In this document: piece after piece, positions 3,466 through 41,511 of the stretch
How the letters are laid out: every line of letters begins with the position of its first letter
Numbering within the stretch: position 1 is the stretch's first letter
Source: an uncultured Gammaproteobacteria bacterium
GTDB lineage: Bacteria; Patescibacteriota; Microgenomatia; Levybacterales; UBA12049
NCBI GenBank assembly: GCA_964628435.1
Contig: CAZVON010000002.1
Coordinates: 26,179 to 72,344 of the forward strand
Direction: 5' to 3'
DNA: 46,166 nucleotides
The notes under the pieces: model-generated
What the model saw: the letters and a program-made list of their open reading frames with translations, nothing else
The model's database searches: none
Told to the model about the DNA's origin: nothing
Position numbers and translations under genes: made by a program

Positions 3466-3789
3466 ATGGCACGAAAAACAAATTCGACAGTTAACAATTC
3501 GGTTAATATTCAACCATTGTTTGATAATGTGCTTATACGGCCTTTAGATGCCGAAGCAAAAACCGCAAGCGGTATCATTCTTCCTGATTCAGCAAAAGAA
3601 AAACCACAAAAAGGGACTGTAATGGCAGTAGGTCTTGGCGCGTATGATGAAGATGGAGAAAGAGTTCCAATGGACGTAAAAGTTGGTCAAATGGTTATGT
3701 ATAAAAAATGGGGAGGAAACGAAATAAAAGTAAAAGGAGAGGAATGGATTTTAGTCGAACAAAAAGATATTCTTGCAATTGTTAACTAA
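3466..3789 (+). CDS. groES: Co-chaperonin GroES
   Basis: IQPLFDNVLI, KTASGIILPDSAKEKPQKGTVMAVG, DILAIV; directly upstream of groEL. Confidence 0.97.
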   Translation: MARKTNSTVNNSVNIQPLFDNVLIRPLDAEAKTASGIILPDSAKEKPQKGTVMAVGLGAYDEDGERVPMDVKVGQMVMYKKWGGNEIKVKGEEWILVEQKDILAIVN

Positions 3790-5454
<1,665 letters not shown>

Positions 5455-14512: not shown

Positions 14513-14549
14513 TTGACACGTTTTGGCAGTCATGATATGATACTGCTAA
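14513..14549 (+). promoter_or_regulatory. hrcA promoter with overlapping CIRCE operator
   Basis: TTGACA (14513-14518), 17 nt, TATGAT (14536-14541); TTGGCAGTC-N9-TACTGCTAA (14523-14549) matches CIRCE geometry. Confidence 0.85.
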
Positions 14550-14556
14550 TCGCAAT

Positions 14557-15288
14557 ATGCACGATCTTACTCAGCGTCAAGTTGAAATTCTGAAGAGCCT
14601 TATCGAAGAATATATTAATACTGCAGAGCCAGTTGGATCAGAAACTCTTGAAAAGAAACACAATTTAAGCGCATCCCCAGCAACAATTCGCAACGAAATG
14701 GTACGGTTAACGGAACTTGGCTACTTAAAAAAACCTCACACGTCTGCTGGTCGTATACCAACCTCTCGTGGGATGAAATTTTATGTAAAGCAACTGATGA
14801 AAGAAAAAGAGCTTTCAGTTGCAGAGGAAGTTGCGTTAAAAGAACGTTTGTGGGACTACAGAGATAAAACACAAGTATTTCTTAAAGAATTAACCAAGAC
14901 ACTTGCAGATAAAACCAAGACACTTGCAGTTGCTACCACGAATAAAGGAGATGTTTATTGTTCAGGGTATGCCAACATATTAGAAATGCCAGAATTTTTT
15001 GATATCGATGTTACTAAAACATTGCTTTCAGCCATTGACGAATTTGAATATTTTCGCGCTATAGTAGCAAATGTTATAGATGAAGAAGATATTCATGTGC
15101 TTCTTGGAGAAGATCTTGGGCCAAAATTGCCTGCCAATTATGGATTTGTCTTTACTCATTATGAAACACCGATGAATTTAAGTGGAGAAATTGGAGTGAT
15201 TGGCCCGGTACGATTGAATTACAACCATGTATTTCCTACGCTTCGAGTTTTTAGAAACTTAATGATAGAAATAGCACGAGGATGGTAA
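14557..15288 (+). CDS. hrcA: Heat-inducible transcription repressor HrcA (short form)
   Basis: LTQRQVEILK...AEPVGS, SPATIRNEM, PHTSAGRIPT, GVIGPVRLNY; precedes grpE-dnaK-dnaJ. Confidence 0.95.
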   Translation: MHDLTQRQVEILKSLIEEYINTAEPVGSETLEKKHNLSASPATIRNEMVRLTELGYLKKPHTSAGRIPTSRGMKFYVKQLMKEKELSVAEEVALKERLWDYRDKTQVFLKELTKTLADKTKTLAVATTNKGDVYCSGYANILEMPEFFDIDVTKTLLSAIDEFEYFRAIVANVIDEEDIHVLLGEDLGPKLPANYGFVFTHYETPMNLSGEIGVIGPVRLNYNHVFPTLRVFRNLMIEIARGW

Positions 15289-15301: not shown

Positions 15302-15805
15302 ATGGTAAAAGACGATCAAAAGTTAAAAAAAGAAGAAAAAGAGATAGACGAAGAACACGATAAAAAAGAAGTTGAGCAGTTAAATCAAAAAGTCGAAGAA
15401 TTAGAAAATAAGTATAAGCGGGCATTAGCTGATTATCAGAATTTACAAAAAAGAGTAGGAGAAGAAAAAAGTGATTGGATTAAGAGCGCGAACAAGCAGA
15501 TACTCTTGCGTTTACTGTCAGTTTTAGATACACTTATGCTTGCAAGCGGGCATAGTAGCGATGCGTCATTAAAGGTAAGTGTTCAGCTCTTTTTAGATGT
15601 TTTAAAACAAGAAGGGGTAGTAAAGGTAGAAACAACTGGAGAGGAATTTGATCCTCGTACCATGGAATGTGTAGAAGTAAAAGAAGGGGAAGACGGAAAA
15701 GTAATGCAAGAAACGCGTGCAGGGTTTTTGTTACATGATAAAGTATTGCGGCCAGCATTAGTGGTAGTAGGGAAAAAGAGTAAAGAGGATAGAGCTAATA
15801 GTTAA
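15302..15805 (+). CDS. grpE: Nucleotide exchange factor GrpE
   Basis: [36 protein letters not shown]. Confidence 0.95.
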
Positions 15806-15819
15806 AAAATACATCAACT

Positions 15820-17739
15820 ATGGGAAAAATAATTGGTATTGATTTAGGTACAACAAATTCGTGTATGGCAGTTATGGAAGGTGGAACTCCGAAAGTAATC
15901 CACTCTGCAGAAGGCCGGAATGTTGTTCCATCTGTGGTTGATCCGATTTCTCACGTAGTAGGAGATGTGGCAAAACGTCAGATGGTATTAAAACCTAAGC
16001 GCACTGTTTTTTCGGTAAAACGGTTAATGGGTCGCAAGTTTAACGATGAATCAGTACAACGTGATATAAAATGGCTTCCATATACTGTTAAAACAGGTCG
16101 AGATGGGATGGCAGTAGTAGAAGTAGAAGGAAAAACATTTACTCCTCAAGAAATTTCTGCAATGATTTTGCAGAAAATAAAGTCAGATGCAGAGAGTTAC
16201 CTTGGACAAAAAGTGACCCAAGCAGTTATTACCGTTCCTGCTTACTTTGACGATAGTCAACGACAAGCAACAAAACAAGCAGGAGAAATTGCCGGTCTTG
16301 AAGTTTTGCGAATTATTAATGAGCCAACTGCGGCAGCGCTCTCATATGGACTCGACAAGAAAAATGCGCATACAATTGCGGTATATGATTTAGGAGGAGG
16401 GACATTTGATATTTCGATTCTTGAGCTAGGTGAAGGAGTTTATGAAGTAAAGTCGACCAATGGAGATACTCATCTAGGAGGAGATGACTTTGATCAAAGA
16501 ATCATAGATTATATTGCTGAAGAGTTCAAAAAAGAGCATGGTATTGATCTTCGGAAAGACTCACAGGCGCTACAACGACTCAAAGAGTCTGCGGAAAAAG
16601 CAAAAATAGAACTGTCAAGTTCACAAGAAGCATCAATTAATCAACCATTTATAACCCAAGGGAAAGAAGGGCCACTTCATTTAACCATGACTTTAACCCG
16701 AGCAAAACTTGAACAATTGGTTGATGCTTTAATTCAAAAGACACTCAAACCAGTTGAACTTGCGCTCAAAGATGCAAAAATGAAAGCGTCTGATGTGGAT
16801 GAAATAGTACTGGTAGGCGGAATGACGCGCATGCCAAAGATTGTTGAGACAGTAACTAAGTTTTTTGGTAAAGAGCCAAATAAATCAGTCAATCCAGACG
16901 AGGTAGTAGCAGTTGGCGCTGCGGTACAAGCAGGAGTTTTAGGAGGAGAAGTAAAAGATGTACTCCTTCTTGATGTGACTCCCCTTACATTGGGTCTTGA
17001 AACATTAGGGGGGGTTATGACTTCTTTGATTAGTCGCAATACCACTATTCCAACGTCTAAATCTCAGGTATTCTCAACTGCTGCAGACAACCAAACACAA
17101 GTAGAAATAAATGTACTTCAAGGGGAACGACCCATGGCTCATGATAATAAATCACTGGGAAGATTTATCTTAGATGGTATTCCTCCAGCACCTCGTGGTG
17201 TTTCTCAAATAGAAGTGACTTTTGATATTGATGCAAATGGTATTTTGAATGTTCGCGCGCAGGATAAGGCATCTGGTAAAGAACAAAGTATTAAAATTAC
17301 TGGTTCAACAGGGTTAACCAAAGAAGAAGTCGAGCGCATGACCAAAGATGCAGAAATGCATGCTCAAGAAGATCAGGAGAAAAAAGAGCGAATCGAAGCA
17401 CGAAACGCAGCAGACTCGATGATTTTTACTGCAGAGAAATCCCTCAAAGACGTGGGAGATAACGTAGACGAGTCTTTGAAAAAAGAAGTCCAAGAAAAAA
17501 TTGATGGCTTAAAAGCAATTCTTGAGTCAGGAACAAAAGAAGATTTAGAAGCAAAAACCAAGGATCTTTCAGAGAGTCTGCAAAAAATTGGTCAGGCAAT
17601 GTATGCTTCGAAAGCTTCGGCGCAAGATCAATCACAACAACGAACGAGCGATCGAGAAGATTCTGATACAACAAACGGAGAACACAAACAAGACAAGAAA
17701 GAGAAAGATGAACCCGTTGAAGGCGAAGTGGTAAATTGA
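15820..17739 (+). CDS. dnaK: Chaperone DnaK (Hsp70)
   Basis: [42 protein letters not shown]. Confidence 0.99.
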
Positions 17740-17910: not shown

Positions 17911-18774
17911 ATGGCAAACGCAAAAGATTATTATCAGATATTAAGTGTTTCTAAAAATGCAACACCAGAAGAAATAAAAAAGGCATATCGAAGACTGGCA
18001 TTGCAATATCATCCAGATCGAAACAAAACCAAAGAGGCAGAAGTAAAATTCAAGGAAGTAACTCAAGCCTACGAAGTACTTTCTGATCCTCAAAAAAAGC
18101 AGACATATGATCAATTTGGATCTTCGGCCTTTGAGCAAGGTGCGGGACAAGGTCCTTTTGGCGGAGGGTATACTGGCAGATATGGACCATTTAGCTATTC
18201 ATATACTACGTCAGGTGGACCAGAAGGATTTGATTTTGGCGGATTTTCAGACCCCTTTGAAATATTTGAACAATTTTTTGGCGGGGCAGCCCGTCAAAGG
18301 CGTCCTGTCTACTCACTTACCATTGATTTTATGGAAGCAGTTCACGGGACAGAGAAAAAGGTGACCATTAACGGTAAGTCTCAAACCATTAAGATTCCAG
18401 CAGGAGTTGACGATGGATCTCGGATTCGGTTTGGTGAGTATGATGTGGTAATAGAAATCAGATCAGATCAGCGTTTTAGGAGAGAAGGATATGATATTAT
18501 TACTCAGGAAGAGATCTCATTTGCCAAAGCAGCCCTTGGAGATACTATTACGGTTGAAACAATAGATGGTCCGGTAAAAGTTCGAGTACCGTCAGGTACT
18601 CAGCCAGATACACTTATACGATTGCGGGTAAAGGGAGTACCTCATCTTCGAGGAAGTGGTCGGGGAGATCATTATGTACGAATAAAAGTGATAGTGCCAA
18701 AAAGTTTATCAGGTAAACAAAAACAGCTTCTTGAAGAATTTGAACAAGAAGGTACCAAAAAAGGGTGGTTTTAA
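17911..18774 (+). CDS. dnaJ: DnaJ chaperone, class II (no zinc finger)
   Basis: J domain with HPD, G/F-rich region, C-terminal domains; no CxxCxGxG repeats; SD AAGGAG at 17896-17901. Confidence 0.9.
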
Positions 18775-18852
18775 CTATGCAAAGACTCATTCCTCTTATT
18801 CACTTTTACTTTGACAGAAAATCCTCATAAGTTTCTTAGAAAGTATTTTCTC

Positions 18853-18887: not shown

Positions 18888-19181
18888 ATGGCGTGTGCAT
18901 CGTCTGAAGTTTTAACGGATCTTGGATGTATTCCTTCAGATCCAGTTGGGTTTGTGGGGAAATTCTATGGTATAGGACTTAGTATTATTGGTGGTGTGGC
19001 AGTGCTTTTTATTATTTATGGAGGATATCTTATCTTAACATCCAAAGGAAATCCGACTCAGCTTGCTCAAGGTAAAAGTACCGTAATGTACGCCATTGTT
19101 GGGTTGCTTTTGGCAATTTTTGGATTTGTGATTACTCAGATAATAACCGTTAACGTTTTGCAACTGCCTGGAGTAAGTTAG
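18888..19181 (+). CDS. TrbC/VirB2-like pilin (CPR T4SS-pilin type)
   Basis: Two hydrophobic helices with GGVAVLFIIYGGYLILTSKGNP...GKSTVMYAIVGLLLA, the pattern of CPR VirB2-like pilins. Confidence 0.75.
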   Translation: MACASSEVLTDLGCIPSDPVGFVGKFYGIGLSIIGGVAVLFIIYGGYLILTSKGNPTQLAQGKSTVMYAIVGLLLAIFGFVITQIITVNVLQLPGVS

Positions 19182-19187
19182 TAAAGC

Positions 19188-21341
19188 ATGAAAAGATTAC
19201 TGCCCATCCTTTTGTTAAATATTATTACCATAGTATTGTTTACCAATGCTGCTTTAGCTCAAGTTACAGCAACTCCATCATTACCTACTGTTACTTCGGT
19301 TCCTACAGCAACTCCATCTATTACCCCATTAGATTCTATACAAGAAGGAGAATGGATAGAAGATCCGCAAGTGACATTTGTGGGAAAATCTGCGGCTCGA
19401 GCGCGAAATTTCCTTTCATCAGTTTTAGAAAACTCTGATTGGACAAATATCATATCGAGCACGCCGACTCCAGGTTCGATTTGGTCACGGGTCAGAAATA
19501 TTATGTATGCATCGTTGGTGTTATTTGTGCTTATAACCGCGTTTGTGATTATTATAAGCCGAGGAAGAAATGTACGTATCATGCGATTCATTCCTCGATT
19601 TTTACTACTTATTGTACTTATTACTTTCTCTTTTTCTCTTATTCAATTTTTATACCAAATAACAGATATTATTCAAAAGTTTTTCTTACGAGATCCGCAG
19701 GGAAACATTATTAGCGCACAGAGTCTTGCATATGTTGCTTATGACTATAATGACTTTCTTGGCTATCGACGAAATGGAACTGCGTTTGATGAGTCAGTAT
19801 TTACCTCGCTGATTTTGGTTAAATTGACAACGATTACTTTTTACTTGATGGGAGGAATTTTGCTTATTAGAAAAATAATTTTATGGTTTTTTGTGGTGCT
19901 TTCTCCCTTGTTTCCATTTTTACTCTTATACTCACCTATTCAAAATACCGCAAAAATATGGCTTGGTGAGTTTTTAAGATGGCTTTTATATGCCCCTCTT
20001 TTTGCGATTTTTTTGTCTGGACTGGTTTATTTTTGGAGCGTAATAACCCCTATTTCTTCTTCAGAAAACTTTTTATATCCGACTGCAACCAATATTCTGT
20101 TAGGCGGACCAGGCCAAATTGTTACATCGACAAATAGTATTAATGTGCAAGACACGTTTGTACTATATGTTGTGTCGCTTTTGATGATGTGGATTGTAAC
20201 ATTACTACCCTTTATTTTATTAAAAGTATTTCTTAATTATTTTCAATCTAGCTTGATGAATCAAGCTACCCTTGTTAAGGAGTTTCTGAATAGGCCTTCG
20301 GTACCAGAAACTCCACCCGCGCCATATAATCCTACTTCAGTGGCGCGCAATATTCCTTTTGTCAACAAAATATTTGTTCCTCCTTCTCCAAAAGTCCCAG
20401 AGATACCTCCATCTCCACCCCAATCAACAACAGGAATAGCACGACCAATACCCGTTACTACATCTTTCGGTATTCCTGCAACAAGAACCTTTACAGCGTC
20501 TCAACCTGCTCAAGTAGCAAGTAATAGGACAGTTTCGGCAAATACAAGTATTCTTCGCATGACCAATCTTTCAATTCCAACAATCCGAGATATCGCTCGA
20601 TTTGAAACAAGCACTATTTCGAATAATAAAGAAAGGCACGATGAAGTCATAAAGATGACAAATACTCTGGAAAAAATTGCTAATCCAATTAAAACAGCTT
20701 CTCCTGTCGAACAGAATCATTTCATCCAAGTAAAACAACAGCTTCAGCGAGAAAAGCAATATGGAAATCCTGTAGCCGCATCCATCTTATCCGCTGCTCA
20801 AACAGTTTCTTCAACAAATTTACCACATGTTCAAAAGTCAACAGTCCCTTCTGTTACAACCGCTTCTTTTCCTGTCGTAAACAGAGTTCAATCAGTAAGT
20901 TTTGATGATTACGAAGCTGTAAGAAAAATATGGCAAGAAAACTATCAAAAACTTGAACCTCCAAAAGACACAAAGGGTAGTCAGACCAAAGAAGAATGGA
21001 TTAAAAAAGATATAGATACGATAAATCAAACGGTTAACTTATTGCTTTCTCATGATCCTGCGAAAGTGAAGCAAGGAATGGACATGGTTGGGAAAATTTT
21101 GCCGTTTCTACTCATTGGAGGATTTTCCCAAACAGAAGTTATAGCCTACCTTAAGGCAAAATTAGAGGCAGGTAAAACAACTATTACAGAACTTAATAAA
21201 CAGCAAGAGCAAGAGGATACAAAACTTGATAGGGAGAAAAAAACTACAGAAGATCAACATGAAATGCATCTTTCCGCAGAACTTCCTGACCCATTAACAG
21301 AAAAAACTTCTTCAGAAAAAGAGAACTTGACTCCTGGATAG
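19188..21341 (+). CDS. Polytopic membrane protein, TrbL/VirB6-like core with long Pro/Thr-rich and helical C-terminal tail
   Basis: Signal peptide; WSRVRNIMY followed by about 6 TM helices including RKIILWFFVVLSPLFPFLLLY...KIWLGEFLRWLLYAPLF (VirB6-like pattern); adjacent to the pilin gene. Confidence 0.55.
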   Translation: MKRLLPILLLNIITIVLFTNAALAQVTATPSLPTVTSVPTATPSITPLDSIQEGEWIEDPQVTFVGKSAARARNFLSSVLENSDWTNIISSTPTPGSIWSRVRNIMYASLVLFVLITAFVIIISRGRNVRIMRFIPRFLLLIVLITFSFSLIQFLYQITDIIQKFFLRDPQGNIISAQSLAYVAYDYNDFLGYRRNGTAFDESVFTSLILVKLTTITFYLMGGILLIRKIILWFFVVLSPLFPFLLLYSPIQNTAKIWLGEFLRWLLYAPLFAIFLSGLVYFWSVITPISSSENFLYPTATNILLGGPGQIVTSTNSINVQDTFVLYVVSLLMMWIVTLLPFILLKVFLNYFQSSLMNQATLVKEFLNRPSVPETPPAPYNPTSVARNIPFVNKIFVPPSPKVPEIPPSPPQSTTGIARPIPVTTSFGIPATRTFTASQPAQVASNRTVSANTSILRMTNLSIPTIRDIARFETSTISNNKERHDEVIKMTNTLEKIANPIKTASPVEQNHFIQVKQQLQREKQYGNPVAASILSAAQTVSSTNLPHVQKSTVPSVTTASFPVVNRVQSVSFDDYEAVRKIWQENYQKLEPPKDTKGSQTKEEWIKKDIDTINQTVNLLLSHDPAKVKQGMDMVGKILPFLLIGGFSQTEVIAYLKAKLEAGKTTITELNKQQEQEDTKLDREKKTTEDQHEMHLSAELPDPLTEKTSSEKENLTPG

Positions 21342-21343
21342 AT

Positions 21344-22954
21344 ATGAACAAAGAGAGAGGATACATCAGCTTGCTGATTCTTATTACTGTTTTAGTAATG
21401 GGAGTCTGGTTTTTAAATCCAATAAAAACACCACCTTTTGCACAAAAGCAAGTATGTACATTAATAGATGCTTCTAAAAAAAAATATTTTAATAATAGAA
21501 GCTATACTCTTATTCGGGGTGTTTCACCGTTATCTACAGAACAATTTAGATATCATGTAAACAAACAAGAAGAGACAATCGATGGAAAACCAGTCTATAC
21601 TCCCAAAAGCAATTGCCAACTGGTTGACTTAGCCAGGCAACGCGATCCGCGTATCCCAGATCCAATCAGGGACGCCATTCTTACCCCTACTCCTGGATAT
21701 ATAACGCAATGTGCGGATGATCAAAGAACCGGAAGATCACGAGTAGCTTCTGTAAGTTGGGGAGGACTTGAAACAAAGGAGTTGCTGTTTATAGAAAATC
21801 CATCAGTACCACACCAGCCTGGGTTTATTTTTACAGAAATATATATAAGTGATGAGTATTTACAAAACTCAAGTGGGAGACTTCCTGATTTTATCGAAAA
21901 AGACTATTGTAATCAAAACTTTCCTGTTGACCCAAAACTCATTTTCCCAAATAAAAATGGAGAAATAGTGCCACCACCCTACATTTTTACTAACCAAATC
22001 CAATTTCATCCAGGGAAACCGCGACCTGAAGGAAGCATTTATACTATTTTTGCCTATCAAAATACCGCGACTTTATGGGGAGATACCTATGCAGGAGGGC
22101 TAAAAATTTCAGCAAATCCAAATAAAGATCCAGATGGTATTGGAAAATATATATACGGGTCAGGATCGACGCGAAAAACGTATACCGTTCGTATTGTTTC
22201 GTACGCCCAGTATCTTTCTTTGGTTGATGATGAAGATAATACGCTAGTGTATTTATACTCAAAAGAAATTCCTACCCCACAACCTGCTCAACTGACTCCA
22301 ACGCCTCGGCAAAAATTGCAAATAGACAAAATAAATGCTTTTGTTTTACAACCTTGGGGATGGTGGAGTCCAGAATGTAAACCCGCTGTCTACTTATATC
22401 CAGAGCAAACAACATCGGTTTCTGTAGAGATAAGACCAAAAGGATACTTAACGTATACTGACCCGCCGTACCCACCATCAGGATGGCACGTGATGGCGCA
22501 TCCTTCTGGCAGGATATCAACGCAAGGAAAAGAATATGAATACTTGTACTATGAGTCAAAAATCAAAGATGTAGAAATTCAAAAACCAACAAAAGGGTAT
22601 GTTGTACGATTTGATGAACTAGTAAAGCTGTATACAACAATTCTTCCTCAACTGGGTCTTTCAGACAAAGAAACACAGGATTTTAAAGATTACTGGCTTA
22701 AAGTTTTACCATATTCGCCGTATTACTTTGTCGGCATTATGGAACCATTGGCAATTGAAAAAATTGAACCCTTGACCATTACTCCAAAACCAACCACAAT
22801 AATAAGAGTACGATTGTATTTTGAAGCACAAGACACAATCAAAGTTGTTGAGCCTCCAGTATTGGTTGCTCAAAAGCGAAATGGTTTTACTGTTTCTGAA
22901 TGGGGGGGGATTGTCAAAGTTGACAAAAACCATCCATTCAGTTGTTCGCAGTAA
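21344..22954 (+). CDS. Exported/membrane-anchored protein with conserved C-terminal KP(A/V)xYLYP...EWGG domain of unknown function
   Basis: N-terminus ERGYISLLILITVLVMG (pilin-leader-like); C-terminal CKPAVYLYPE...GW.V.A.PSG...YLYYE...DFKDYW...IRV...GFTVSEWGG. Confidence 0.65.
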   Translation: MNKERGYISLLILITVLVMGVWFLNPIKTPPFAQKQVCTLIDASKKKYFNNRSYTLIRGVSPLSTEQFRYHVNKQEETIDGKPVYTPKSNCQLVDLARQRDPRIPDPIRDAILTPTPGYITQCADDQRTGRSRVASVSWGGLETKELLFIENPSVPHQPGFIFTEIYISDEYLQNSSGRLPDFIEKDYCNQNFPVDPKLIFPNKNGEIVPPPYIFTNQIQFHPGKPRPEGSIYTIFAYQNTATLWGDTYAGGLKISANPNKDPDGIGKYIYGSGSTRKTYTVRIVSYAQYLSLVDDEDNTLVYLYSKEIPTPQPAQLTPTPRQKLQIDKINAFVLQPWGWWSPECKPAVYLYPEQTTSVSVEIRPKGYLTYTDPPYPPSGWHVMAHPSGRISTQGKEYEYLYYESKIKDVEIQKPTKGYVVRFDELVKLYTTILPQLGLSDKETQDFKDYWLKVLPYSPYYFVGIMEPLAIEKIEPLTITPKPTTIIRVRLYFEAQDTIKVVEPPVLVAQKRNGFTVSEWGGIVKVDKNHPFSCSQ

Positions 22955-22995
22955 AGCTAAAAGGTAAAATGCAACTGCTTTTAACTTTTTAACCT

Positions 22996-25503
22996 ATGTT
23001 AGGAAATTTCTTTAATCACAAAAAAACGAATACAGAACAACAGAACAATAATTCTAGCTCAGGAGCACATTCTTCTCAAGCTGAATTTATCGGATCTTCC
23101 ATGCAACCATCGGTTCGGCAAGACCTTTCGGTACTCTCGCATCTTGATACTAGATCTGTGTCAGTACTTCACCAAGCAGAAGAAGAAGCAAAGCGACTTA
23201 AGCAAGAATACATTGAGCCAGAACATATCCTAATAGGTTTGTTATATGATGGCGATATTTTTCAACTGTTAGCAAAGCTTTCTATTGATGCGGCAGGACT
23301 TTCTCATGCATTGCAAGGTCAATGTCGTCAGGGTACATTCAGTGGCCAGCCGAGATTAAGTGAGATTTCAAAAAGCCTTTTTGAAAATGCGCATCAAGGA
23401 GCAAAAGCGCGGTCTGCCGAATTTATTAGCCCGGAAGATTTACTTCTTTCTTTCTATGCTGTTGGCGGTACCTCAGCCTCGTTTCTTACCTCACAAGGAA
23501 TGTCAAGAGAAAAACTTCAAGACGCTCTTTCGTCACACGCTGCTTTTGTGATGGGAAAGAAATCAGTTCTTGAAAAATTTGGAACCGATCTTACCCAGGA
23601 AGCTCAAAAAGAAAAACTTGATCCAGTCGTGGGACGGGATAAAGAAGTAGAACGACTCGTTCATATATTGCTTCGCCGAACAAAAAATAATCCGATTGTC
23701 ATTGGCGAGGCAGGAGTTGGAAAAACAGCACTCGTTGAAGGACTAGCAGAAATGATAGTAAATGGCCAAGCACCAAAAGATTTACTGAATAGAAGAATAA
23801 TCCAACTCGATCTTGCCTCGTTAGTAGCAGGCGCATCGCATCGTGGAGAATTTGAAGAACGGCTCAAAGACGTTATTCAAGAAGTACAATTATCAAATGG
23901 TAACATAATCTTATTTATTGATGAAATTCACACGCTTATTGGCGCAGGTGAACAAGGAGGAGCATTGGATGCATCTAATATTATTAAACCGTACTTAGCG
24001 CGTGGACAATTGCAGCTTATTGGTACAACTACCATTTCTGAATATCGAAAATACTTTGAAAAAGACAAAGCATTCCAACGACGGTTCCAACCAATTGTTG
24101 CTGATGAACCAACAGAAGAAGTTGCTTTACAGATGCTTGCAGTGCTCAAACCAAAGTATGAAAAGTTTCATACTGTTGAATTAAGCGATGAGGCGTTAAA
24201 AGCAGCAGTACATTTGTCTAAAAAATATATTGGCGAGCGGTTTCTGCCAGATAAAGCAGTTGATTTACTAGACGAAGCAGCAGCAGAGGTAAAACTTCTC
24301 AATACCTCGGGAAAAAGATCAGACAACACGGTAAATCAACAAGATATTGAAAAAATCGTCAGTGGGTGGACTGGAATTCCTATCACCAAACTCACTGAAG
24401 ATGAAAGTCAAAAACTGCTTAATTTAGAAAAGCTTATTCATAATCGGTTGATTGATCAAAAAGAAGCAGTCGCATCAGTAGCCGAAGCAGTACGACGCGG
24501 TCGTATTGGGTTGGCAAGTCCAAACAGGCCAATTGCGTCTTTTATTTTCTTAGGGCCAACCGGGGTTGGAAAAACAGAACTTGCAAAAACCATTGCAGAG
24601 ATTCTGTTTGGAAAAGATGATGCCATGGTACGATTGGATATGAGCGAATACATGGAAAAACACGAAGTGGCAAAGTTGATTGGCGCGCCGCCTGGGTATG
24701 TGGGATACGAAGAAGGGGGCCAGCTTACTGAAGCAGTACGGGCAAAACCATACTCAATTGTTCTTCTGGATGAAATAGAGAAAGCACATCCAGATGTATT
24801 CAATATTTTATTGCAACTTCTTGAAGATGGACGGCTTACCGACAACAAAGGCAATACCATTTCGTTTAAAAATACCATTGTCATCGCTACCTCAAATATT
24901 GGGAGCCTTTTGATTCAACAGCACCTAAGCCAAAATACACAAATTCAGCAAGATTTTGAAAAAGAATTTAAAAATTTAAAGGAAATTCTTATGCAAGAAT
25001 TGCTCAAGTTTTTCAAACCAGAGTTGGTGAATCGTTTTGACGAAGTAGTTGTCTTTAAGCCACTAGGCCAGCAAGATATGTCAGCAATAGCAAAGTTGGG
25101 TATCCAAAAAACGCAGAAACTCTTAAAAGAGCAAGGATTAGACATGCAGATTACTGATCAAGCTTTGTCTATTTTGGCTAAGGAAGGTTATGATCCTGTG
25201 TATGGTGCCAGGCCACTTCGTCGTTTAATCCAAAGCGCTATCGAAAATCCAATCGCGCTTTTATTAATCCAAAAAACATTTGTATCTGGAGATACTATAC
25301 GTCTTGACTATGATATGCAACAACAAAAATTTACCTTTACCAAAGGCCAACCAGCACAGCCGGTTCAAGCGTCGACTCCTCCTCAAAACTCATCTCCTCA
25401 ACAACCGCCCACTATGTCTGAGTTTCCACCGACAAGCGTCACATCTCAATCTGTGAATATCTCTCAAAATTCTAGCTCGAGTGTTGAATCTTCAGTTGTA
25501 TAA
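22996..25503 (+). CDS. Clp/Hsp100 AAA+ ATPase (double Clp-N, two NBDs) lacking M-domain and IGF loop
   Basis: Two Clp-N repeats; GEAGVGKT / FIDEIH; GPTGVGKT / LDEIEKAH; PPGYVGY; GARPLRR; very short NBD1-NBD2 linker. Confidence 0.9.
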   Translation: MLGNFFNHKKTNTEQQNNNSSSGAHSSQAEFIGSSMQPSVRQDLSVLSHLDTRSVSVLHQAEEEAKRLKQEYIEPEHILIGLLYDGDIFQLLAKLSIDAAGLSHALQGQCRQGTFSGQPRLSEISKSLFENAHQGAKARSAEFISPEDLLLSFYAVGGTSASFLTSQGMSREKLQDALSSHAAFVMGKKSVLEKFGTDLTQEAQKEKLDPVVGRDKEVERLVHILLRRTKNNPIVIGEAGVGKTALVEGLAEMIVNGQAPKDLLNRRIIQLDLASLVAGASHRGEFEERLKDVIQEVQLSNGNIILFIDEIHTLIGAGEQGGALDASNIIKPYLARGQLQLIGTTTISEYRKYFEKDKAFQRRFQPIVADEPTEEVALQMLAVLKPKYEKFHTVELSDEALKAAVHLSKKYIGERFLPDKAVDLLDEAAAEVKLLNTSGKRSDNTVNQQDIEKIVSGWTGIPITKLTEDESQKLLNLEKLIHNRLIDQKEAVASVAEAVRRGRIGLASPNRPIASFIFLGPTGVGKTELAKTIAEILFGKDDAMVRLDMSEYMEKHEVAKLIGAPPGYVGYEEGGQLTEAVRAKPYSIVLLDEIEKAHPDVFNILLQLLEDGRLTDNKGNTISFKNTIVIATSNIGSLLIQQHLSQNTQIQQDFEKEFKNLKEILMQELLKFFKPELVNRFDEVVVFKPLGQQDMSAIAKLGIQKTQKLLKEQGLDMQITDQALSILAKEGYDPVYGARPLRRLIQSAIENPIALLLIQKTFVSGDTIRLDYDMQQQKFTFTKGQPAQPVQASTPPQNSSPQQPPTMSEFPPTSVTSQSVNISQNSSSSVESSVV

Positions 25504-25629: not shown

Positions 25630-25658
25630 TTGAAGCTTTTTAGTGGATTTGGTATACT
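25630..25658 (+). promoter_or_regulatory. Promoter for leaderless nusA
   Basis: TTGAAG (25630-25635), 17 nt, TGgTATACT (-10 at 25653-25658), 7 nt before ATG 25666; a second TTGACA at 25569-25574. Confidence 0.6.
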
Positions 25659-25665
25659 TACCCAT

Positions 25666-26688
25666 ATGCCAGCTATACAAAGAAGCGAATTTGCACTTGC
25701 TCTCAACCAAGTTGCCACTGAACGGGGTATAGATATAAAAGTGGTTCTAGAAGCAGTAGAAAATGCTATTTTGGCTGCGTATCGGAAAGATCATCCAGGT
25801 GTAGAGGTAGAAGAATATAGAGCTTCTTTAAATCCTAGTACGGGTGAAGCTAAAATCTTTCACAATGATACAAATGTTACTCCTCCAGGATTTGGTCGTA
25901 TTGCAGCTCAGACAGCAAAACAGGTAATCCTTCAAAAAATCCGAGAAAAAGAAAAAGAGGCCATTTTATCTGAGTATAAAATACGGGTGGGAACCATTGT
26001 AAATGGAATGGTGCTTCGTTTTGCCGGGCCAAACGTGATTGTTGACATTGGGAAGACGGAAGCGGTTATGCCACCTCCTGAGCAAATCACAAACGAAAAA
26101 TATCATTTAAATCAGCGACTGACGGTATATCTTTTAGAAATTCGACCAGGACTAAAAGGAGATGAAATCATTGTCTCTCGAGCAAATACAGGATTACTAG
26201 AAGGACTCTTTAAACGGGAAGTTCCTGAAATCGCCCAGGGAAGTGTGATTATTAAAGCGATAGCACGGGAGGCTGGAAACAGATCAAAAATCGCAGTCTA
26301 CTCAAACCAAGGTGGTATTGACCCAGTTGGAAGCTGCGTTGGTCAAAAAGGCGTTCGAGTACAAGCAATTATTCAAGAATTTGGTGGCTTGGAAAAAATC
26401 GATATCATTCAATGGCAAGAAAGCCCCAAAAACTATATTGCGCAGGCACTTTCTCCAGTAAAAGACTTGAGGGTAGAAATTAACGAAGAAGAAAAAACTG
26501 CTCGTGTATACGTTGCTCAAAAAGATCTTTCTTTGGCAATTGGAAAAGATGGTCAAAATGTGCGCCTTGCTTCCAAACTCACGGGATACCGCATTGAAAT
26601 TGAATCTCAGGAGCTTCTTGTAACCACAGCCAAAGATGATTTAGAAGAAGAGGCAGACACGAAAAAAAGAAAAAATGAAGAAAAATAA
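25666..26688 (+). CDS. nusA: Transcription elongation factor NusA
   Basis: FGRIAAQTAKQVILQKIRE, S1 domain, AREAGNRSKIAV, DPVGSCVGQKG, AIGKDGQNVRLA; ATG 25666 preferred. Confidence 0.97.
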   Translation: MPAIQRSEFALALNQVATERGIDIKVVLEAVENAILAAYRKDHPGVEVEEYRASLNPSTGEAKIFHNDTNVTPPGFGRIAAQTAKQVILQKIREKEKEAILSEYKIRVGTIVNGMVLRFAGPNVIVDIGKTEAVMPPPEQITNEKYHLNQRLTVYLLEIRPGLKGDEIIVSRANTGLLEGLFKREVPEIAQGSVIIKAIAREAGNRSKIAVYSNQGGIDPVGSCVGQKGVRVQAIIQEFGGLEKIDIIQWQESPKNYIAQALSPVKDLRVEINEEEKTARVYVAQKDLSLAIGKDGQNVRLASKLTGYRIEIESQELLVTTAKDDLEEEADTKKRKNEEK

Positions 26689-31954: not shown

Positions 31955-33088
31955 ATGGATCCATTAAGTCCTCAGATGACAAGTGATAATACGATTGTGA
32001 ATAGTCAAGCAACTGCCAAACAAACCCAAACAGGAGCAAGCGATCAGTTGCGTGCATTGGGAGAAAAAATTGAGAAAGCGGATATTCCTCAAGATCTTCG
32101 GCAAAACCTCATTGAGAGACTCCAGCGATTAGCTCTTCTTCGAGCGTCTGCAGGGTTTATGAACGCCAACTATATTTTAGAATACGAAAATACCTGCGCG
32201 TATGTAAAATGGGTTACCAGTTTACCATGGAATAAAACGAGTACAGATAGCCTAGATATCCAAAAAGCACAAAGTATTCTTGATAAAAATCATCATGGTT
32301 TGGTAGGTGTTAAAAACAGAATAATTGAATACCTGGCATCGCTTATTTTGAATATGAAAAATAGTACGGACCATATTATACGCGCACCAATTCTCTGTTT
32401 GGTTGGGCTTGCTGGTACTGGTAAAACAACACTTGCTCTTTCTATGGCGCAAGCTCTGGGTAGAAATTTTGAACGGATTCCTTTTGGTGGCATGGGTGAT
32501 TCACGGGTATTGCGCGGTCAATCTCGAGCATTTCCTGATGCAGAACCAGGACACATTGTAAAAAAACTGGTTCATGCAAAAACCAATAATTGTGTCATTT
32601 TACTCGACGAATTAGATAGAGTTGCAGACTCAGCGCGTGCAGATATTATGGGAGTATTGGTTGAGTTACTTGATCCTGAGCAAAACATCGCCTTTACCGA
32701 TCACTATATTGATTATCCGTTTGATCTCTCAAAAGTATTATTTGTAGCAACGGCAAATAACACAACGAATATTTCAACAGCTGTGCTCGATCGCTTAGAA
32801 ATAATTCAAATGCCATCATATTCTGATGAAGAAAAAATAGTTATTGCTAAAGATCATTTGTTTCCGAAAATTCAAATTCAAACTGGTCTTTCTCAAAATC
32901 AACTGGTTATCGATGATAGCGTTTGGCCCCAGGTGATTAGGCCATTAGGGTTTGATTCTGGCATTCGTAGCCTTGATCGAACTATTCAAGGAGTTTGTCG
33001 CAAAGTTGCCCGACTTATTGTTGAAGGAAAGACTCAATCAGTACACATAACAGCACAAAATATAAAAGAATTTTTGCCCAGTTTTTAA
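31955..33088 (+). CDS. Lon-type AAA+ ATPase module without N-domain or protease domain
   Basis: WVTSLPW, LDKNHHGL..VKNRIIEYL, ILCLVGLAGTGKTT, LLDELD, LLDPEQN..FTDHY..DLSKVLFVATAN, DRLEII; ends at ITAQNIKEFL with no Ser-Lys protease domain. Confidence 0.85.
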   Translation: MDPLSPQMTSDNTIVNSQATAKQTQTGASDQLRALGEKIEKADIPQDLRQNLIERLQRLALLRASAGFMNANYILEYENTCAYVKWVTSLPWNKTSTDSLDIQKAQSILDKNHHGLVGVKNRIIEYLASLILNMKNSTDHIIRAPILCLVGLAGTGKTTLALSMAQALGRNFERIPFGGMGDSRVLRGQSRAFPDAEPGHIVKKLVHAKTNNCVILLDELDRVADSARADIMGVLVELLDPEQNIAFTDHYIDYPFDLSKVLFVATANNTTNISTAVLDRLEIIQMPSYSDEEKIVIAKDHLFPKIQIQTGLSQNQLVIDDSVWPQVIRPLGFDSGIRSLDRTIQGVCRKVARLIVEGKTQSVHITAQNIKEFLPSF

Positions 33089-33103: not shown

Positions 33104-34777
33104 ATGAATGAACAAGTTTCAATAATGCCACTAGGTGGAATTGGTGACGTTACCAAGAATATGTATCTCTATATCTATAAAGATCAGGTACTTATTGTGG
33201 ATTGTGGCATCGGATTTGCTGACGAAACAATGCTTGGGGTGGACTTATTGCTTCCTGATATTTCGTACCTGGTGAGCGCAAAAAAAAAGATTGTAGGTAT
33301 GACGTTAACTCATGGACATGAAGATCACATCGGTGCGCTTCCTTTTATACTTCCCCAACTTGCTGGAAATGGAGTTGACATGTCGTTTCCTATTTATGGG
33401 ACACCTCTTACCGCTGCCCTGGCGAATGAAAAATTACAAGAATATAAAGTTCCCTATAAAGTACAAACGGTAACATTTGAGAACAACAAAAAAACAATGG
33501 GTAGTTTTACCGCTTCGTTTATCCGCGTAACGCATTCAGTGCCAGATAGTTCTCATATATTTATTCAAACTCCGATTGGAAATTTTTACCATGGGAGTGA
33601 TTTTAAATTTGATTTAACCCCTGTTGATGGAAAAAAAACTGATTTTATGCAAATCGGAAGAGCGGCAAACAGCGGTATTTTATGCTTATTATCTGATTGT
33701 TTGGGATCAGAGCGAGCAGGACATACAGTTTCTGAGGAAGTACTCTCAGAGAATTTTGAAGATGAAGTACGAAAATGTAGGGGGAAATTTATTGTTACAA
33801 CCTATTCGTCCAATATTTCAAGGCTTAATCAAGCAATTTCAATCGGAGAAAAATTCAATCGGAAAGTGTGTTTTGTTGGAAAATCTTTGATAAAAGCAAA
33901 GGATGTTGCTCGAAAACTTGGGTATATGAAATTACGACAGGGAATAGAAATTGAGGTTGATGAGGTGAAAAAATATCCTGAAAATAATATTTTACTGTTA
34001 GTTGCCGGAAGTCAAGGTCAGGAAAACTCAGCTCTTTCTCGCATTGCAAACGACGAGCATACAGAAATAAGTATATCTGAAAAAGATGTTGTTATTTTTT
34101 CTGCTGATCCGATTCCTGGCAATGAAATATCGGTCAATTCACTTATTGATACTATTGCCAAAAAAGGTGCGCGAGTAGTGTATTCAGACATCGCTGATGA
34201 TTTCCATGTATCAGGACACGGTTCAGCGTTAGATTTGATGATGCTTGTGTCATTCACCAATCCCAAATTCTTAATGCCTATCAGTGGTACGTATCGGCAC
34301 ATGATTGCTTATAAAAACTTAGCAGAAAAATTAGGTTACTTGAGTAACCGAGTGGTTTTATCAGAAGATGGTCAAGAAATTATCTTTACCAGAGAAAAAA
34401 CACAAAAAGGAGTAAAGACGGATATTCGCAATGTATACGTTGATCAGATAACTGGGGAAGAGGTAGAGGGATTTGTTTTAAGAGACAGGCAACAACTTTC
34501 TGAAGGAGGAATTCTTATTGTTTTGTCAGAAGTAAATGCTGCAACAGGACAGTTAGTGGGGAATCCAGAAATTATTAGTCGTGGTTTTACTGAGTATGAC
34601 AATAAAAAATTTAGCAAAGATTTAGTTTTGGAAATTAAAAGAACATTGGAGCAAAGAAAAGGACGAGTTACAAATTGGATTCATATCAGAAAACAAATAG
34701 GAGTAGTTGCAGAACGATTTATTTTTAAAAAATTACGTTGTCGTCCCCTTGTACTTCCTGTAGTAATTGAAGTTTAG
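33104..34777 (+). CDS. rnj: Ribonuclease J
   Basis: PLGGIGDVTKNM, THGHEDHIG, HSVPD, DFKFD, GSQGQE, HVSGH. Confidence 0.96.
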   Translation: MNEQVSIMPLGGIGDVTKNMYLYIYKDQVLIVDCGIGFADETMLGVDLLLPDISYLVSAKKKIVGMTLTHGHEDHIGALPFILPQLAGNGVDMSFPIYGTPLTAALANEKLQEYKVPYKVQTVTFENNKKTMGSFTASFIRVTHSVPDSSHIFIQTPIGNFYHGSDFKFDLTPVDGKKTDFMQIGRAANSGILCLLSDCLGSERAGHTVSEEVLSENFEDEVRKCRGKFIVTTYSSNISRLNQAISIGEKFNRKVCFVGKSLIKAKDVARKLGYMKLRQGIEIEVDEVKKYPENNILLLVAGSQGQENSALSRIANDEHTEISISEKDVVIFSADPIPGNEISVNSLIDTIAKKGARVVYSDIADDFHVSGHGSALDLMMLVSFTNPKFLMPISGTYRHMIAYKNLAEKLGYLSNRVVLSEDGQEIIFTREKTQKGVKTDIRNVYVDQITGEEVEGFVLRDRQQLSEGGILIVLSEVNAATGQLVGNPEIISRGFTEYDNKKFSKDLVLEIKRTLEQRKGRVTNWIHIRKQIGVVAERFIFKKLRCRPLVLPVVIEV

Positions 34778-40779: not shown

Positions 40780-41511
40780 TTAAATGCGTTCTAAACGTGC
40801 TTTAATAATAAGTCGTTTCCAGGTTGTTCCTGGTGGAGTACAGGTAACCAAGGTTACGTATTCATTGTCAAACTGCTGGGTGAAAATAGAAGTATCAGAC
40901 GGTTCAACAACGCTAAATGAAAAGATTTTATATGTATAGGTAATATCGTTAATAGTTACTTTTAACTCGTCACTAACTTTTAACTTATACACTGTTGCAA
41001 AAATTGTTTTGTAATCTGAAGGGTTAAATAATTGTGGAAGTGTCGAATGACCAAAAATAACTGTGTTGCCTTTTGTTCCAGGTAAAGTAGTACCTTCGTA
41101 ATGAACTAGATGTTGTGAGAGATCGTTGTCTGTTGTTGAAACAAGAGCGTTTTTGATATCAAGTGTTGGAATAGAAAGATAATATAGAGGTGTCATAGGA
41201 TGAGTTTTTTTGTTATATATATATCCTGGAAACCAATTTTGCGCATTGGTGTAATCAATTCCTGCAAGCGTACGTGCGCCATTTTTTATCAGACTTTGGA
41301 CTGTTTGTTCGTTAAGTATGGTTGCCTGAGGGATAGGAGCAGTAAAAGTTGTTGAAGCAAAGATGGGAGAGAAAAAAAATTGCCAAGAAATTAGAGGAAG
41401 TGAAACATATATTAAGAGTGCAATTCCGACGATACACGTAAAAATGCCCAGAATTCTGATGATAGTTTTATTATGAAGGTGAGGGGTTTTTTTATAATAG
41501 TAATTACACAT
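40780..41511 (-). CDS. Sortase
   Basis: N-terminal TM; LSIPTL, PGTKGNTVIFGHS (His), TLVTC (Cys), PGTTWKRLII (Arg). Confidence 0.92.
   Translation of the reverse strand: MCNYYYKKTPHLHNKTIIRILGIFTCIVGIALLIYVSLPLISWQFFFSPIFASTTFTAPIPQATILNEQTVQSLIKNGARTLAGIDYTNAQNWFPGYIYNKKTHPMTPLYYLSIPTLDIKNALVSTTDNDLSQHLVHYEGTTLPGTKGNTVIFGHSTLPQLFNPSDYKTIFATVYKLKVSDELKVTINDITYTYKIFSFSVVEPSDTSIFTQQFDNEYVTLVTCTPPGTTWKRLIIKARLERI

Follow-up and report, generated by a model that had tools for sequence, protein, structure and literature searches.

A candidate type IV secretion-coupled Hsp100 encoded beside dnaK in a Levybacteria-type genome

The stretch of DNA analyzed here (46,166 nt, positions 26,179 to 72,344 of contig CAZVON010000002.1 in assembly GCA_964628435.1; below, the window) encodes a pilin, a VirB6-like membrane protein, an anchored protein of 536 amino acids (aa), and an Hsp100 ATPase that we call Clp1. 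We lean toward the view that the region encodes a dedicated, ClpP-independent Hsp100 together with two parts of a Levybacteria-type (Patescibacteria) type IV secretion system (T4SS), its pilin and its VirB6-like platform. Judged by comparative sequence analysis, Clp1 is probably a T4SS-coupled unfoldase. A sequence-only reading of the window had described four co-directional genes with gaps of 6, 2, and 41 nt between dnaJ and nusA, and the coordinates of the plus-strand open reading frames (ORFs) agree with that description. The features in question are as follows.

18888 to 19181, plus strand: T4SS-type (VirB2-like) pilin, 97 aa (PF18895)
19188 to 21341, plus strand: VirB6/TrbL-like membrane protein, 717 aa (PF04610 and fold)
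20634 to 20837, plus strand: tail repeat unit, aa ~483 to 550 of the 717-aa protein (blastp)
21344 to 22954, plus strand: 536-aa anchored protein of no known family
22996 to 25503, plus strand: Clp1, class-I Hsp100, 835 aa (Pfam, NCBIfam, alignment, and tree)

Close orthologs of Clp1, with 56 to 74% identity, are present in 28 of 40 relatives from the same order. In the 20 loci that were fetched, the VirB6-like gene lies directly upstream of Clp1 in every case (twice with a homolog of the 536-aa protein in between), and a pilin is found in 18, once fused to the VirB6-like protein. The pilin/VirB6-like/Clp1 trio stands between dnaK and dnaJ in 10 of these loci. A larger, overlapping sample comprised 80 loci with titles naming Levybacteria, Microgenomates, Daviesbacteria, or Patescibacteria, of which 68 contain enough downstream sequence. 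Clp1 is located no more than 2.5 kb downstream of the VirB6-like gene in 63 of the 68; two have Clp1 4 to 6 kb upstream, and the remaining three are cut at the upstream end. When 41 relatives were scored for both genes, 28 carried Clp1 and the VirB6-like gene, 12 carried neither, one carried the VirB6-like gene only, and none carried Clp1 only. Of 151 genomes sampled evenly across the class, 23 contained the VirB6-like family, and a Clp1-type gene was present in all 19 VirB6-like-positive genomes searched and in none of 11 negatives; these Clp1 calls rest on match pattern, with some rows confirmed on a tree. The linkage proposed from the window is therefore conserved in relatives (20 of 20 fetched loci and 63 of 68 named loci), and genome comparison indicates joint gain and loss of Clp1 and the tail-bearing VirB6-like gene, which usually stand side by side. 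Many of the records L111 to L189 carry the title "uncultured Gammaproteobacteria bacterium" (third-party assemblies), one is titled Limnocylindrales, and one is titled Lysobacterales; these titles look like placeholders or errors.

Outside the order, a T4SS gene lies within ~7 kb of Clp1 in 11 of 13 genomes. The neighbors are a pilin and a VirB6-like gene in one genome, a VirB6-like gene in two, and pilins or another type of VirB6 in three; in the rest, which are all five genomes of one family, a divergent PrgI-p233-VirB4-like set is found near Clp1. In more distant families, the linkage hence takes in other T4SS genes as well. dnaK was found in 12 of these 13 genomes and lies elsewhere in all 12 (the match in G080 is cut to 377 residues). 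Since Clp1 has T4SS neighbors while dnaK is elsewhere, the link between Clp1 and T4SS genes is wider than the link between Clp1 and dnaK. This finding is the main reason for leaving a housekeeping reading of Clp1. A housekeeping ClpB encoded beside dnaK had been our initial view, and it was demoted after the co-occurrence counts, the tree, and the context outside the order were considered.

Clp1 comprises an N-terminal low-complexity stretch followed by Clp_N, D1, D2, and D2-small regions (Pfam domains Clp_N, AAA, AAA_lid_9, AAA_2, and D2-small). Walker A motifs at residues 237 and 520 and Walker B motifs at residues 305 and 588 are intact in both rings, according to the patterns that we take to define these motifs. 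Clp1 reaches no NCBIfam cut-off. Its best overall profile score was obtained with ClpB (TIGR03346; 907.6 bits in two stretches versus a cut-off of 1232.1); the ClpA model gave 733.8 bits (cut-off, 993.15), TssH/ClpV (TIGR03345) gave 702.4 bits (cut-off, 884.95), and Clp1 fell far below the ClpK and ClpG cut-offs. In an alignment with Escherichia coli ClpB, Clp1 jumps from ClpB residue 409 to residue 520, so that the M-domain is absent. The D1 pore loop reads GASHR in Clp1 versus GAKYR in E. coli ClpB, a change of tyrosine to histidine, and the D2 pore loop is intact. Inspection by eye of the aligned D2 loop region of Clp1 revealed no ClpP-docking tripeptide of the IGF/LGF type. These features hold across the family: none of the 62 Clp1 ORFs in which the D1 motif was found has a tyrosine or phenylalanine in that loop (56 read GASHR), and the D2 loop is kept in all 64 complete Clp1 ORFs of the larger sample. 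Elsewhere, the D1 loop reads GAKFR in ClpB of the same class, KYR in the ClpB, ClpC, ClpK, and ClpA references, and GAGVK in the TssH reference.

In a tree built from 68 Hsp100 rows (IQ-TREE quick search, LG+G4, SH-aLRT), the window's protein fell in a Clp1 clade of 33 rows with SH-aLRT support of 100. The ClpB clade of the class joined two named ClpB references, apart from Clp1. Clp1 was not grouped with the TssH (unresolved polytomy), ClpK, or ClpL references. ClpB-type genes with the M-domain gap pattern are present in 13 of 40 relatives, and 11 of those relatives also carry Clp1. The separate clade, the coexistence with ClpB, and the pore loops argue that Clp1 is not ClpB. On these sequence criteria, Clp1 is a class-I Hsp100 of a separate clade and is not a canonical ClpB, ClpC, or ClpA. 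The description of the ATPase as a special Clp unfoldase was borne out in that Clp1 lies below the NCBIfam cut-offs and is without an M-domain.

Two further groups of Clp proteins were seen in relatives. A second Clp paralog of ~790 to 810 aa is encoded a few kilobases downstream of Clp1 in 13 of 20 relatives' loci (e.g., L046:14586-16955); the window's genome has no copy. This paralog is membrane-anchored, with hydrophobic segments at its N terminus, and lacks canonical pore loops, and its D1 ring has decayed, without Walker B and often without Walker A. On the tree, its clade is also apart from Clp1. In locus L109 (G009:C1:1-20000), which contains 112 N, the 536-aa homolog is followed by three opposite-strand genes and this second paralog, and hrcA-grpE-dnaK-dnaJ is kept. 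Distant proteins of the Clp1 clade reach 1239 to 1503 aa (L078:8175-12143, L079:8152-12663, L076:7655-11374, and L080:8130-12290). They carry an N-terminal extension of 190 to 270 aa, a short spacer of M-domain size, and an insert of ~300 aa within D2, between AAA_2 and D2-small, that matches no Pfam family and occupies the position of the ClpP-binding loops in ClpA/ClpC.

The 717-aa protein consists of a signal peptide, a hydrophobic helical core (aa ~95 to 367), and a conserved helical C-terminal tail (aa ~436 to 700). Its assignment as VirB6-like, which had previously been made by transmembrane pattern only, is now supported by both a profile hidden Markov model and fold comparison. PF04610 (TrbL/VirB6) scored 19.4 bits by hmmscan (cut-off, 25.9) and 29 bits in a six-frame search of the genome, where the match was marked over the cut-off and covered profile positions 1 to 190 of 215. 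An AlphaFold2 model built from an alignment of 20 orthologs had a mean predicted local distance difference test score (pLDDT) of 67.5. The five best PDB matches of this model are chains of TrwI/VirB6 from R388 (E values of 7.7e-3 to 3.9e-2, probability 1.00), with template modeling scores normalized to the target of 0.42 to 0.47, ~300 aligned columns, and 15 to 17% identity. Both the profile and the modeled fold point to a VirB6/TrbL-like identity for the 717-aa protein. By hydropathy, its final hydrophobic segment stops close to residue 349 of 717, in agreement with the ~370-aa C-terminal tail proposed from the sequence. These 370 residues are modeled by AlphaFold2 as two helical domains, and many of their positions are invariant in the ortholog alignment. 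A search of the ESM Atlas with the tail returned no usable match.

The upstream gene encodes a pilin by profile: PF18895 (T4SS_pilin) scored 30.0 bits versus a cut-off of 26.6 and was again over the cut-off, at 29.7 bits, in the six-frame search, which upholds the VirB2-like assignment. The score against NF045849 was 34.4 bits, below the cut-off of 40. The 97-aa translation, read by eye, contains two hydrophobic helices connected by a short polar loop. In the larger named sample, 74 of 76 loci have a pilin ortholog immediately 5' of the VirB6-like gene. In L058 (11463-13952, minus strand), the pilin and the VirB6-like protein read as a single ORF of 829 aa, which is either a natural fusion or a sequencing frameshift.

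The VirB6-like gene is encoded in a genome with other T4SS parts. The assembly is 1.16 Mb in 54 contigs and is 99.65% complete. In addition to the pilin gene 6 nt upstream of the VirB6-like gene, contig C29 carries genes for a PrgI/VirB3-like protein, a 233-aa protein, a VirB4-like ATPase, and an SLT-domain protein (hydrolase), and contig C51 carries a VirD4-like gene at the contig end. Contig C30 encodes two PF18895 pilins, one of which is the C terminus of a 415-aa protein, and a weaker VirB6-like protein of 542 aa. C30 also encodes a 447-aa protein with a Trans_reg_C domain and a 959-aa protein without a family and is a second T4SS satellite. A Pfam sweep of the larger ORFs of the window found no VirB4, VirD4, VirB11, relaxase, or integrase, as the sequence-only reading had stated; the only AAA_10 match, which is weak, is FtsK. 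The absence of VirB4 and VirD4 holds for the window but not for the genome, where both types are encoded (on C29 and C51, respectively). Because T4SS parts lie on other contigs, the window is a T4SS satellite and not a VirB4-less machine or conduit. Clp1 is the only AAA_2 protein of the genome, and the genome is therefore without ClpB, ClpC, and ClpX. ClpP (PF00574) was not found in this 99.65%-complete genome, and FtsH is present. Clp1 as the genome's only housekeeping ClpB/ClpC ortholog had been named as an outcome that would speak against a special role. Clp1 is indeed the only Hsp100 here; since relatives show it to be a paralog distinct from ClpB, its being the sole Hsp100 does not settle the matter.

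Two results bear on a possible contact between Clp1 and the tail. Among the fetched relatives, four have a copy of a tail repeat (aa ~483 to 550) in a C-terminal extension of their Clp1, and the larger sample has it in 5 of its 64 Clp1 ORFs. By blastp with SEG and composition statistics, searches from the window's protein gave E values of 1.7e-6 and 5.7e-6, and comparisons between relatives gave values down to 8e-39. The repeat-bearing Clp1 extensions have no hydrophobic segment, indicating that the repeat can exist in the cytoplasm. Docking of the Clp N-terminal domain on the tail, as suggested from the window, was examined by complex prediction with tail residues 436 to 717 and Clp1 residues 1 to 195. 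The score was 0.59 (runs of 0.59, 0.59, and 0.61), and the best of three controls scored 0.00. The runs share at least 58% of contacts, and the pLDDT of the partner is at least 72. Of 80 solved complexes, 58 attain the mark that this score reaches, as do 2 of 110 mismatched pairs; these counts hold only roughly here because our own alignments were used. The score lies in a weak band: among those that attain the mark, scores of 0.60 or less came from only 7 of the 80 solved complexes and from both passing mismatches. The prediction gives weak support to the proposed docking.

At its N terminus, the 536-aa protein carries a membrane anchor, and its C-terminal domain of ~200 aa is strongly conserved. 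It matches no Pfam or NCBIfam family, and none of its 211 homologs is named. Its AlphaFold2 model (pLDDT, 83.6) has no PDB match (best probability, 0.05). Cysteines C38, C345, and C534 are invariant in the family. Homologs are found near VirB6-like genes in some relatives and also in distant families (G124 and G143). The distribution across genomes identifies the 536-aa protein as a variable accessory and not a core part, and the earlier inclusion of this exported protein in the module is not sustained. In relatives, the gene after Clp1 usually encodes a membrane-anchored S8 or M4 protease, which the window's genome is without; such proteases were detected by tblastn in 28 of 41 loci. These downstream proteases were considered as cytoplasmic T4SS cargo and rejected, since all 12 that were examined carry N-terminal hydrophobic anchors.

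The trio follows a heat-shock operon, and the position between dnaJ and nusA was as described. The flanking features are listed below; the CIRCE (controlling inverted repeat of chaperone expression) sequence used for scoring is the consensus that we take to apply.

14513 to 14541, plus strand: promoter-like site upstream of hrcA; 11 of 12 hexamer matches, with TG (consensus scan)
14523 to 14549, plus strand: CIRCE-like inverted repeat overlapping the hrcA promoter; 4 mismatches to the assumed consensus
14557 to 15288, plus strand: hrcA (Pfam)
15302 to 15805, plus strand: grpE (Pfam)
15820 to 17739, plus strand: dnaK (Pfam)
17911 to 18774, plus strand: dnaJ (Pfam)
25630 to 26688: nusA (Pfam)

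The module had been credited with its own promoter. This was not supported: the consensus scan found no plus-strand promoter-like site in the 113-nt dnaJ-pilin spacer, and the sole strong site 5' of the module is the hrcA promoter at 14513 to 14541. The other best-scoring site is upstream of nusA. Folding of the spacer was no better than that of shuffled sequences (z = +1.48), and the inverted repeats at 18807 to 18851 do not fold stably. From hrcA to the end of Clp1, no plus-strand terminator-like site was found save a weak one inside the 536-aa gene. The dnaJ-pilin spacer is just 22 to 62 nt in four relatives, and a CIRCE-like element lies 5' of hrcA in 15 of 15 relatives' loci that cover that region. 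No CIRCE-like element with 4 or fewer mismatches was found directly before the pilin or Clp1 gene in the window or in relatives' loci. The pilin, VirB6-like, 536-aa, and Clp1 genes are predicted from these signals to continue the hrcA-grpE-dnaK-dnaJ operon, transcribed with it or just behind it. The stretch is present in four DNA runs of one groundwater study, and no RNA data set is listed as holding it.

Elsewhere in the window, the order downstream of Clp1 by Pfam is nusA, infB, pnp, a Lon-like AAA protein, RNase J, and ftsK. The Lon-like protein (377 aa, 31955 to 33088) has an AAA domain and a Lon lid domain, with no Lon protease domain detected, and is followed by RNase J (33104 to 34777). 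The Pfam sweep of the other larger ORFs identified groES-groEL, lepA, tRNA synthetases, a sortase, and others, and five ORFs were without any family. groES-groEL lies at 3466 to 5454, ~9 to 10 kb upstream of the dnaK operon, with no CIRCE-like site (5 or fewer mismatches) just upstream of groES. At 3 or fewer mismatches, no CIRCE match occurs within the window; a better match, with 2 mismatches, lies outside it at C2:508. On the minus strand at 40780 to 43780, the sortase gene (40780 to 41511) overlaps the end of a 758-aa ORF (41504 to 43780) of no Pfam family, and the two may be a sortase-substrate pair.

Several observations weigh against a T4SS platform with a dedicated Hsp100. Support is comparative and predictive throughout, and the co-occurrence counts make it look stronger than it is because related genomes are not independent of one another. 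In one relative, G009 (83% complete), the pilin, the VirB6-like gene, and the 536-aa homolog are kept, and Clp1 was not found. Of the 12 genomes without Clp1 and the VirB6-like gene, 10 still have VirB4-like genes; this indicates that Clp1 is not a general requirement of the T4SS and that the pair is an accessory to the T4SS core. By hmmscan, the TrbL score misses the Pfam cut-off, and none of the fold matches attains an E value of 1e-3. The window's own Clp1 is without the shared repeat, and the complex score falls in the weak band noted above. The signal peptide and six hydrophobic segments of the 717-aa protein would place the tail outside the cell, in which case it could not dock a cytoplasmic ATPase. 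The positive-inside count and hydropathy gave no decision on the side of the tail. In the available part of the report on the R388 structure, just two VirB6 helices insert into the membrane (PMC9259494), and hydropathy accordingly cannot decide the location of the tail. Finally, a stress chaperone would also fit what is seen in this genome, where Clp1 is the sole Hsp100 and its gene sits in a heat-shock operon preceded by a CIRCE-like operator.

That last observation leads to the first alternative, in which Clp1 is a stand-alone stress disaggregase or unfoldase of the HrcA regulon, like ClpG, ClpL, or ClpIb, that shares an operon with T4SS genes without any partnership. Such a chaperone would account for a genome with Clp1 as its only Hsp100 and no ClpB, ClpX, or ClpP, for the position of Clp1 in line with hrcA-grpE-dnaK-dnaJ behind the sole strong promoter and a CIRCE-like element, for a dnaK gene that shares the Clp1 locus in 17 of 20 relatives and, where 7 kb is available on both sides, in 38 of 41 loci, and for the nearness of groES-groEL. 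We nevertheless consider it unlikely. Outside the order, Clp1 lies beside T4SS genes with dnaK elsewhere, and Clp1 is absent from 12 of 12 relatives without the VirB6-like gene, which still need proteostasis. The canonical M-domain ClpB type is also present in 11 Clp1-bearing relatives, and a domain is common to some Clp1 proteins and the VirB6-like tail. Where an opposite-strand gene splits the trio from dnaK, no CIRCE-like element precedes the trio.

In a second alternative, Clp1 works on the machine itself, either in pilin extraction or in recycling of the pilin and VirB6-like protein, as a ClpV-like factor or a stand-in for the VirB11 helper. The tight linkage of Clp1 is to the pilin and the VirB6-like gene (the pilus base) and not to VirB4, and Clp1 shares a non-aromatic D1 pore loop with the TssH reference (GAGVK). 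In the R388 model, as given in the available part of its report, pilin extraction needs the VirB4 and VirB11 ATPases (PMC9259494), and the available part of a T4SS review describes the T4SSs of Patescibacteria as unusual monoderm systems with VirB2-like pilins (PMC12857230). Against this, Clp1 adjoins VirB3/VirB4-like genes and not pilins in one family, and the pilin, as read from its translation, has little cytoplasmic sequence for a threading motor to grip. We consider a role confined to the machine distinctly unlikely. It is very improbable that the pilin/VirB6-like pair is instead a separate envelope structure that works with anchored surface proteins or proteases and needs a cytoplasmic unfoldase: the flanking genes do encode membrane-anchored extracellular proteins (the 536-aa protein here and S8/M4 proteases in relatives), VirB4-like genes persist without the pair, and C30 carries a second VirB6-like gene with its own pilins, yet Clp1 lies next to a VirB3/VirB4-like core in one family, fold and profile point to VirB6, and the anchored proteins, which look Sec-dependent, are exchanged from one lineage to another, which makes them poor candidates for a fixed partner.

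If the region does encode a T4SS platform with a dedicated Hsp100, Clp1 would be brought to the VirB6-like platform as hexamers, with the conserved tail and the Clp N-terminal region as the probable points of contact. At the membrane, D2-driven threading by Clp1 would pull polypeptides, with the D1 grip weakened and the D2 loop intact. As clients, we lean slightly toward secretion substrates that would be unfolded, over extraction or recycling of the pilin or platform. The pair would act as an accessory to a VirB4-type core encoded elsewhere, and in a genome without ClpB, ClpX, and ClpP, Clp1 may also do residual general Hsp100 work. A more specific proposal, that Clp1 is a previously unrecognized energizing component of the T4SS that sits on the VirB6-like tail and feeds unfolded proteins or pulls pilin, is possible and is offered only tentatively.

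The T4SSs of Patescibacteria, the candidate phyla radiation, are MPF-FATA-like (mating-pair formation class FATA) with VirB2-like pilins (Quinonero-Coronel et al. 2025, PMC12102498) and are reviewed in PMC12857230. The genome studied here resembles them in having PF18895 pilins and VirB6-like, PrgI/VirB3-like, VirB4-like, and VirD4-like proteins and an SLT hydrolase, scattered over the chromosome with no relaxase seen. VirB6 homologs are reported in the available text to be scarce in Microgenomatia (PMC12102498). Unlike that picture, tail-bearing VirB6-like proteins are common in Levybacteria-type genomes and are tied to an Hsp100. The words Clp, Hsp100, DnaK, and heat shock are absent from the available main text of that survey (PMC12102498; supplementary tables aside), as are Clp and AAA+ from the available text of the review (PMC12857230). 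Two Saccharibacteria transcriptome papers mention, in their available parts, clpB and the T4SS separately. No described partnership between a Clp protein and a T4SS was found in the literature, supplementary files aside.

ClpV recycles the T6SS (type VI secretion system) sheath, and its N-domain binds a part of the machine. Clp1 is like ClpV/TssH in being a class-I Hsp100 that is ClpP-independent, has a non-aromatic D1 loop, and, as proposed here, may be dedicated to a secretion machine; it is unlike ClpV/TssH in scoring below the TssH cut-off, in not grouping with it on the tree, and in having a T4SS-like partner. It resembles ClpB in its best profile score, two active-looking AAA rings, no ClpP loop, and a gene beside dnaK, as is often the case for clpB, whereas the M-domain that couples ClpB to DnaK is absent, the tyrosine of the D1 pore is a histidine, and the clade is separate. 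Other ClpP-independent double-ring unfoldases with a short or absent M-domain are ClpG/ClpK, ClpL, and ClpIb of Actinomycetota (PMC10149685, available part). ClpIb has a short loop in place of LGF, and its gene neighborhoods are said not to be conserved; in contrast to Clp1, no secretion-system linkage is reported for ClpIb in the available part of that work (PMC10149685). The 717-aa protein is like TrwI/VirB6 of plasmid R388 (PDB 7o3v, 8rt9, and 8rtd) in its long hydrophobic helical core, which forms the pilus base in R388, and is unlike TrwI in having a signal peptide, a 370-aa helical tail, motifs of its own, and a repeat shared with some Clp1 proteins. The tail also recalls the "extended VirB6" proteins of Rickettsiales. 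Extended VirB6 proteins carry a large extra C-terminal region, the role of which is given as unknown in the available part of the review (PMC12857230).

According to the same part of that review, T4SS substrates are thought to cross unfolded, and a T4SS is reported to be needed for life on host cells in one cultivated Saccharibacterium (PMC12857230). If our reading is correct, T4SS biology would gain a new type of motor, in the form of a conserved, lineage-wide partnership in which a VirB6-like platform is paired with a stripped-down Hsp100. Clp1 would then parallel ClpV of the T6SS and the unfolding ATPase of the type III secretion system, and it would be a candidate answer to how T4SS cargo is unfolded in epibiotic bacteria. 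The locus supplies VirB6 homologs of the kind that a profile survey, in its available text, called scarce in Microgenomatia (PMC12102498). This genome is a useful minimal case, with Clp1 alone and without ClpB, ClpX, ClpP, or the second Clp paralog, and it offers defined proteins for work on binding, unfolding, and topology.

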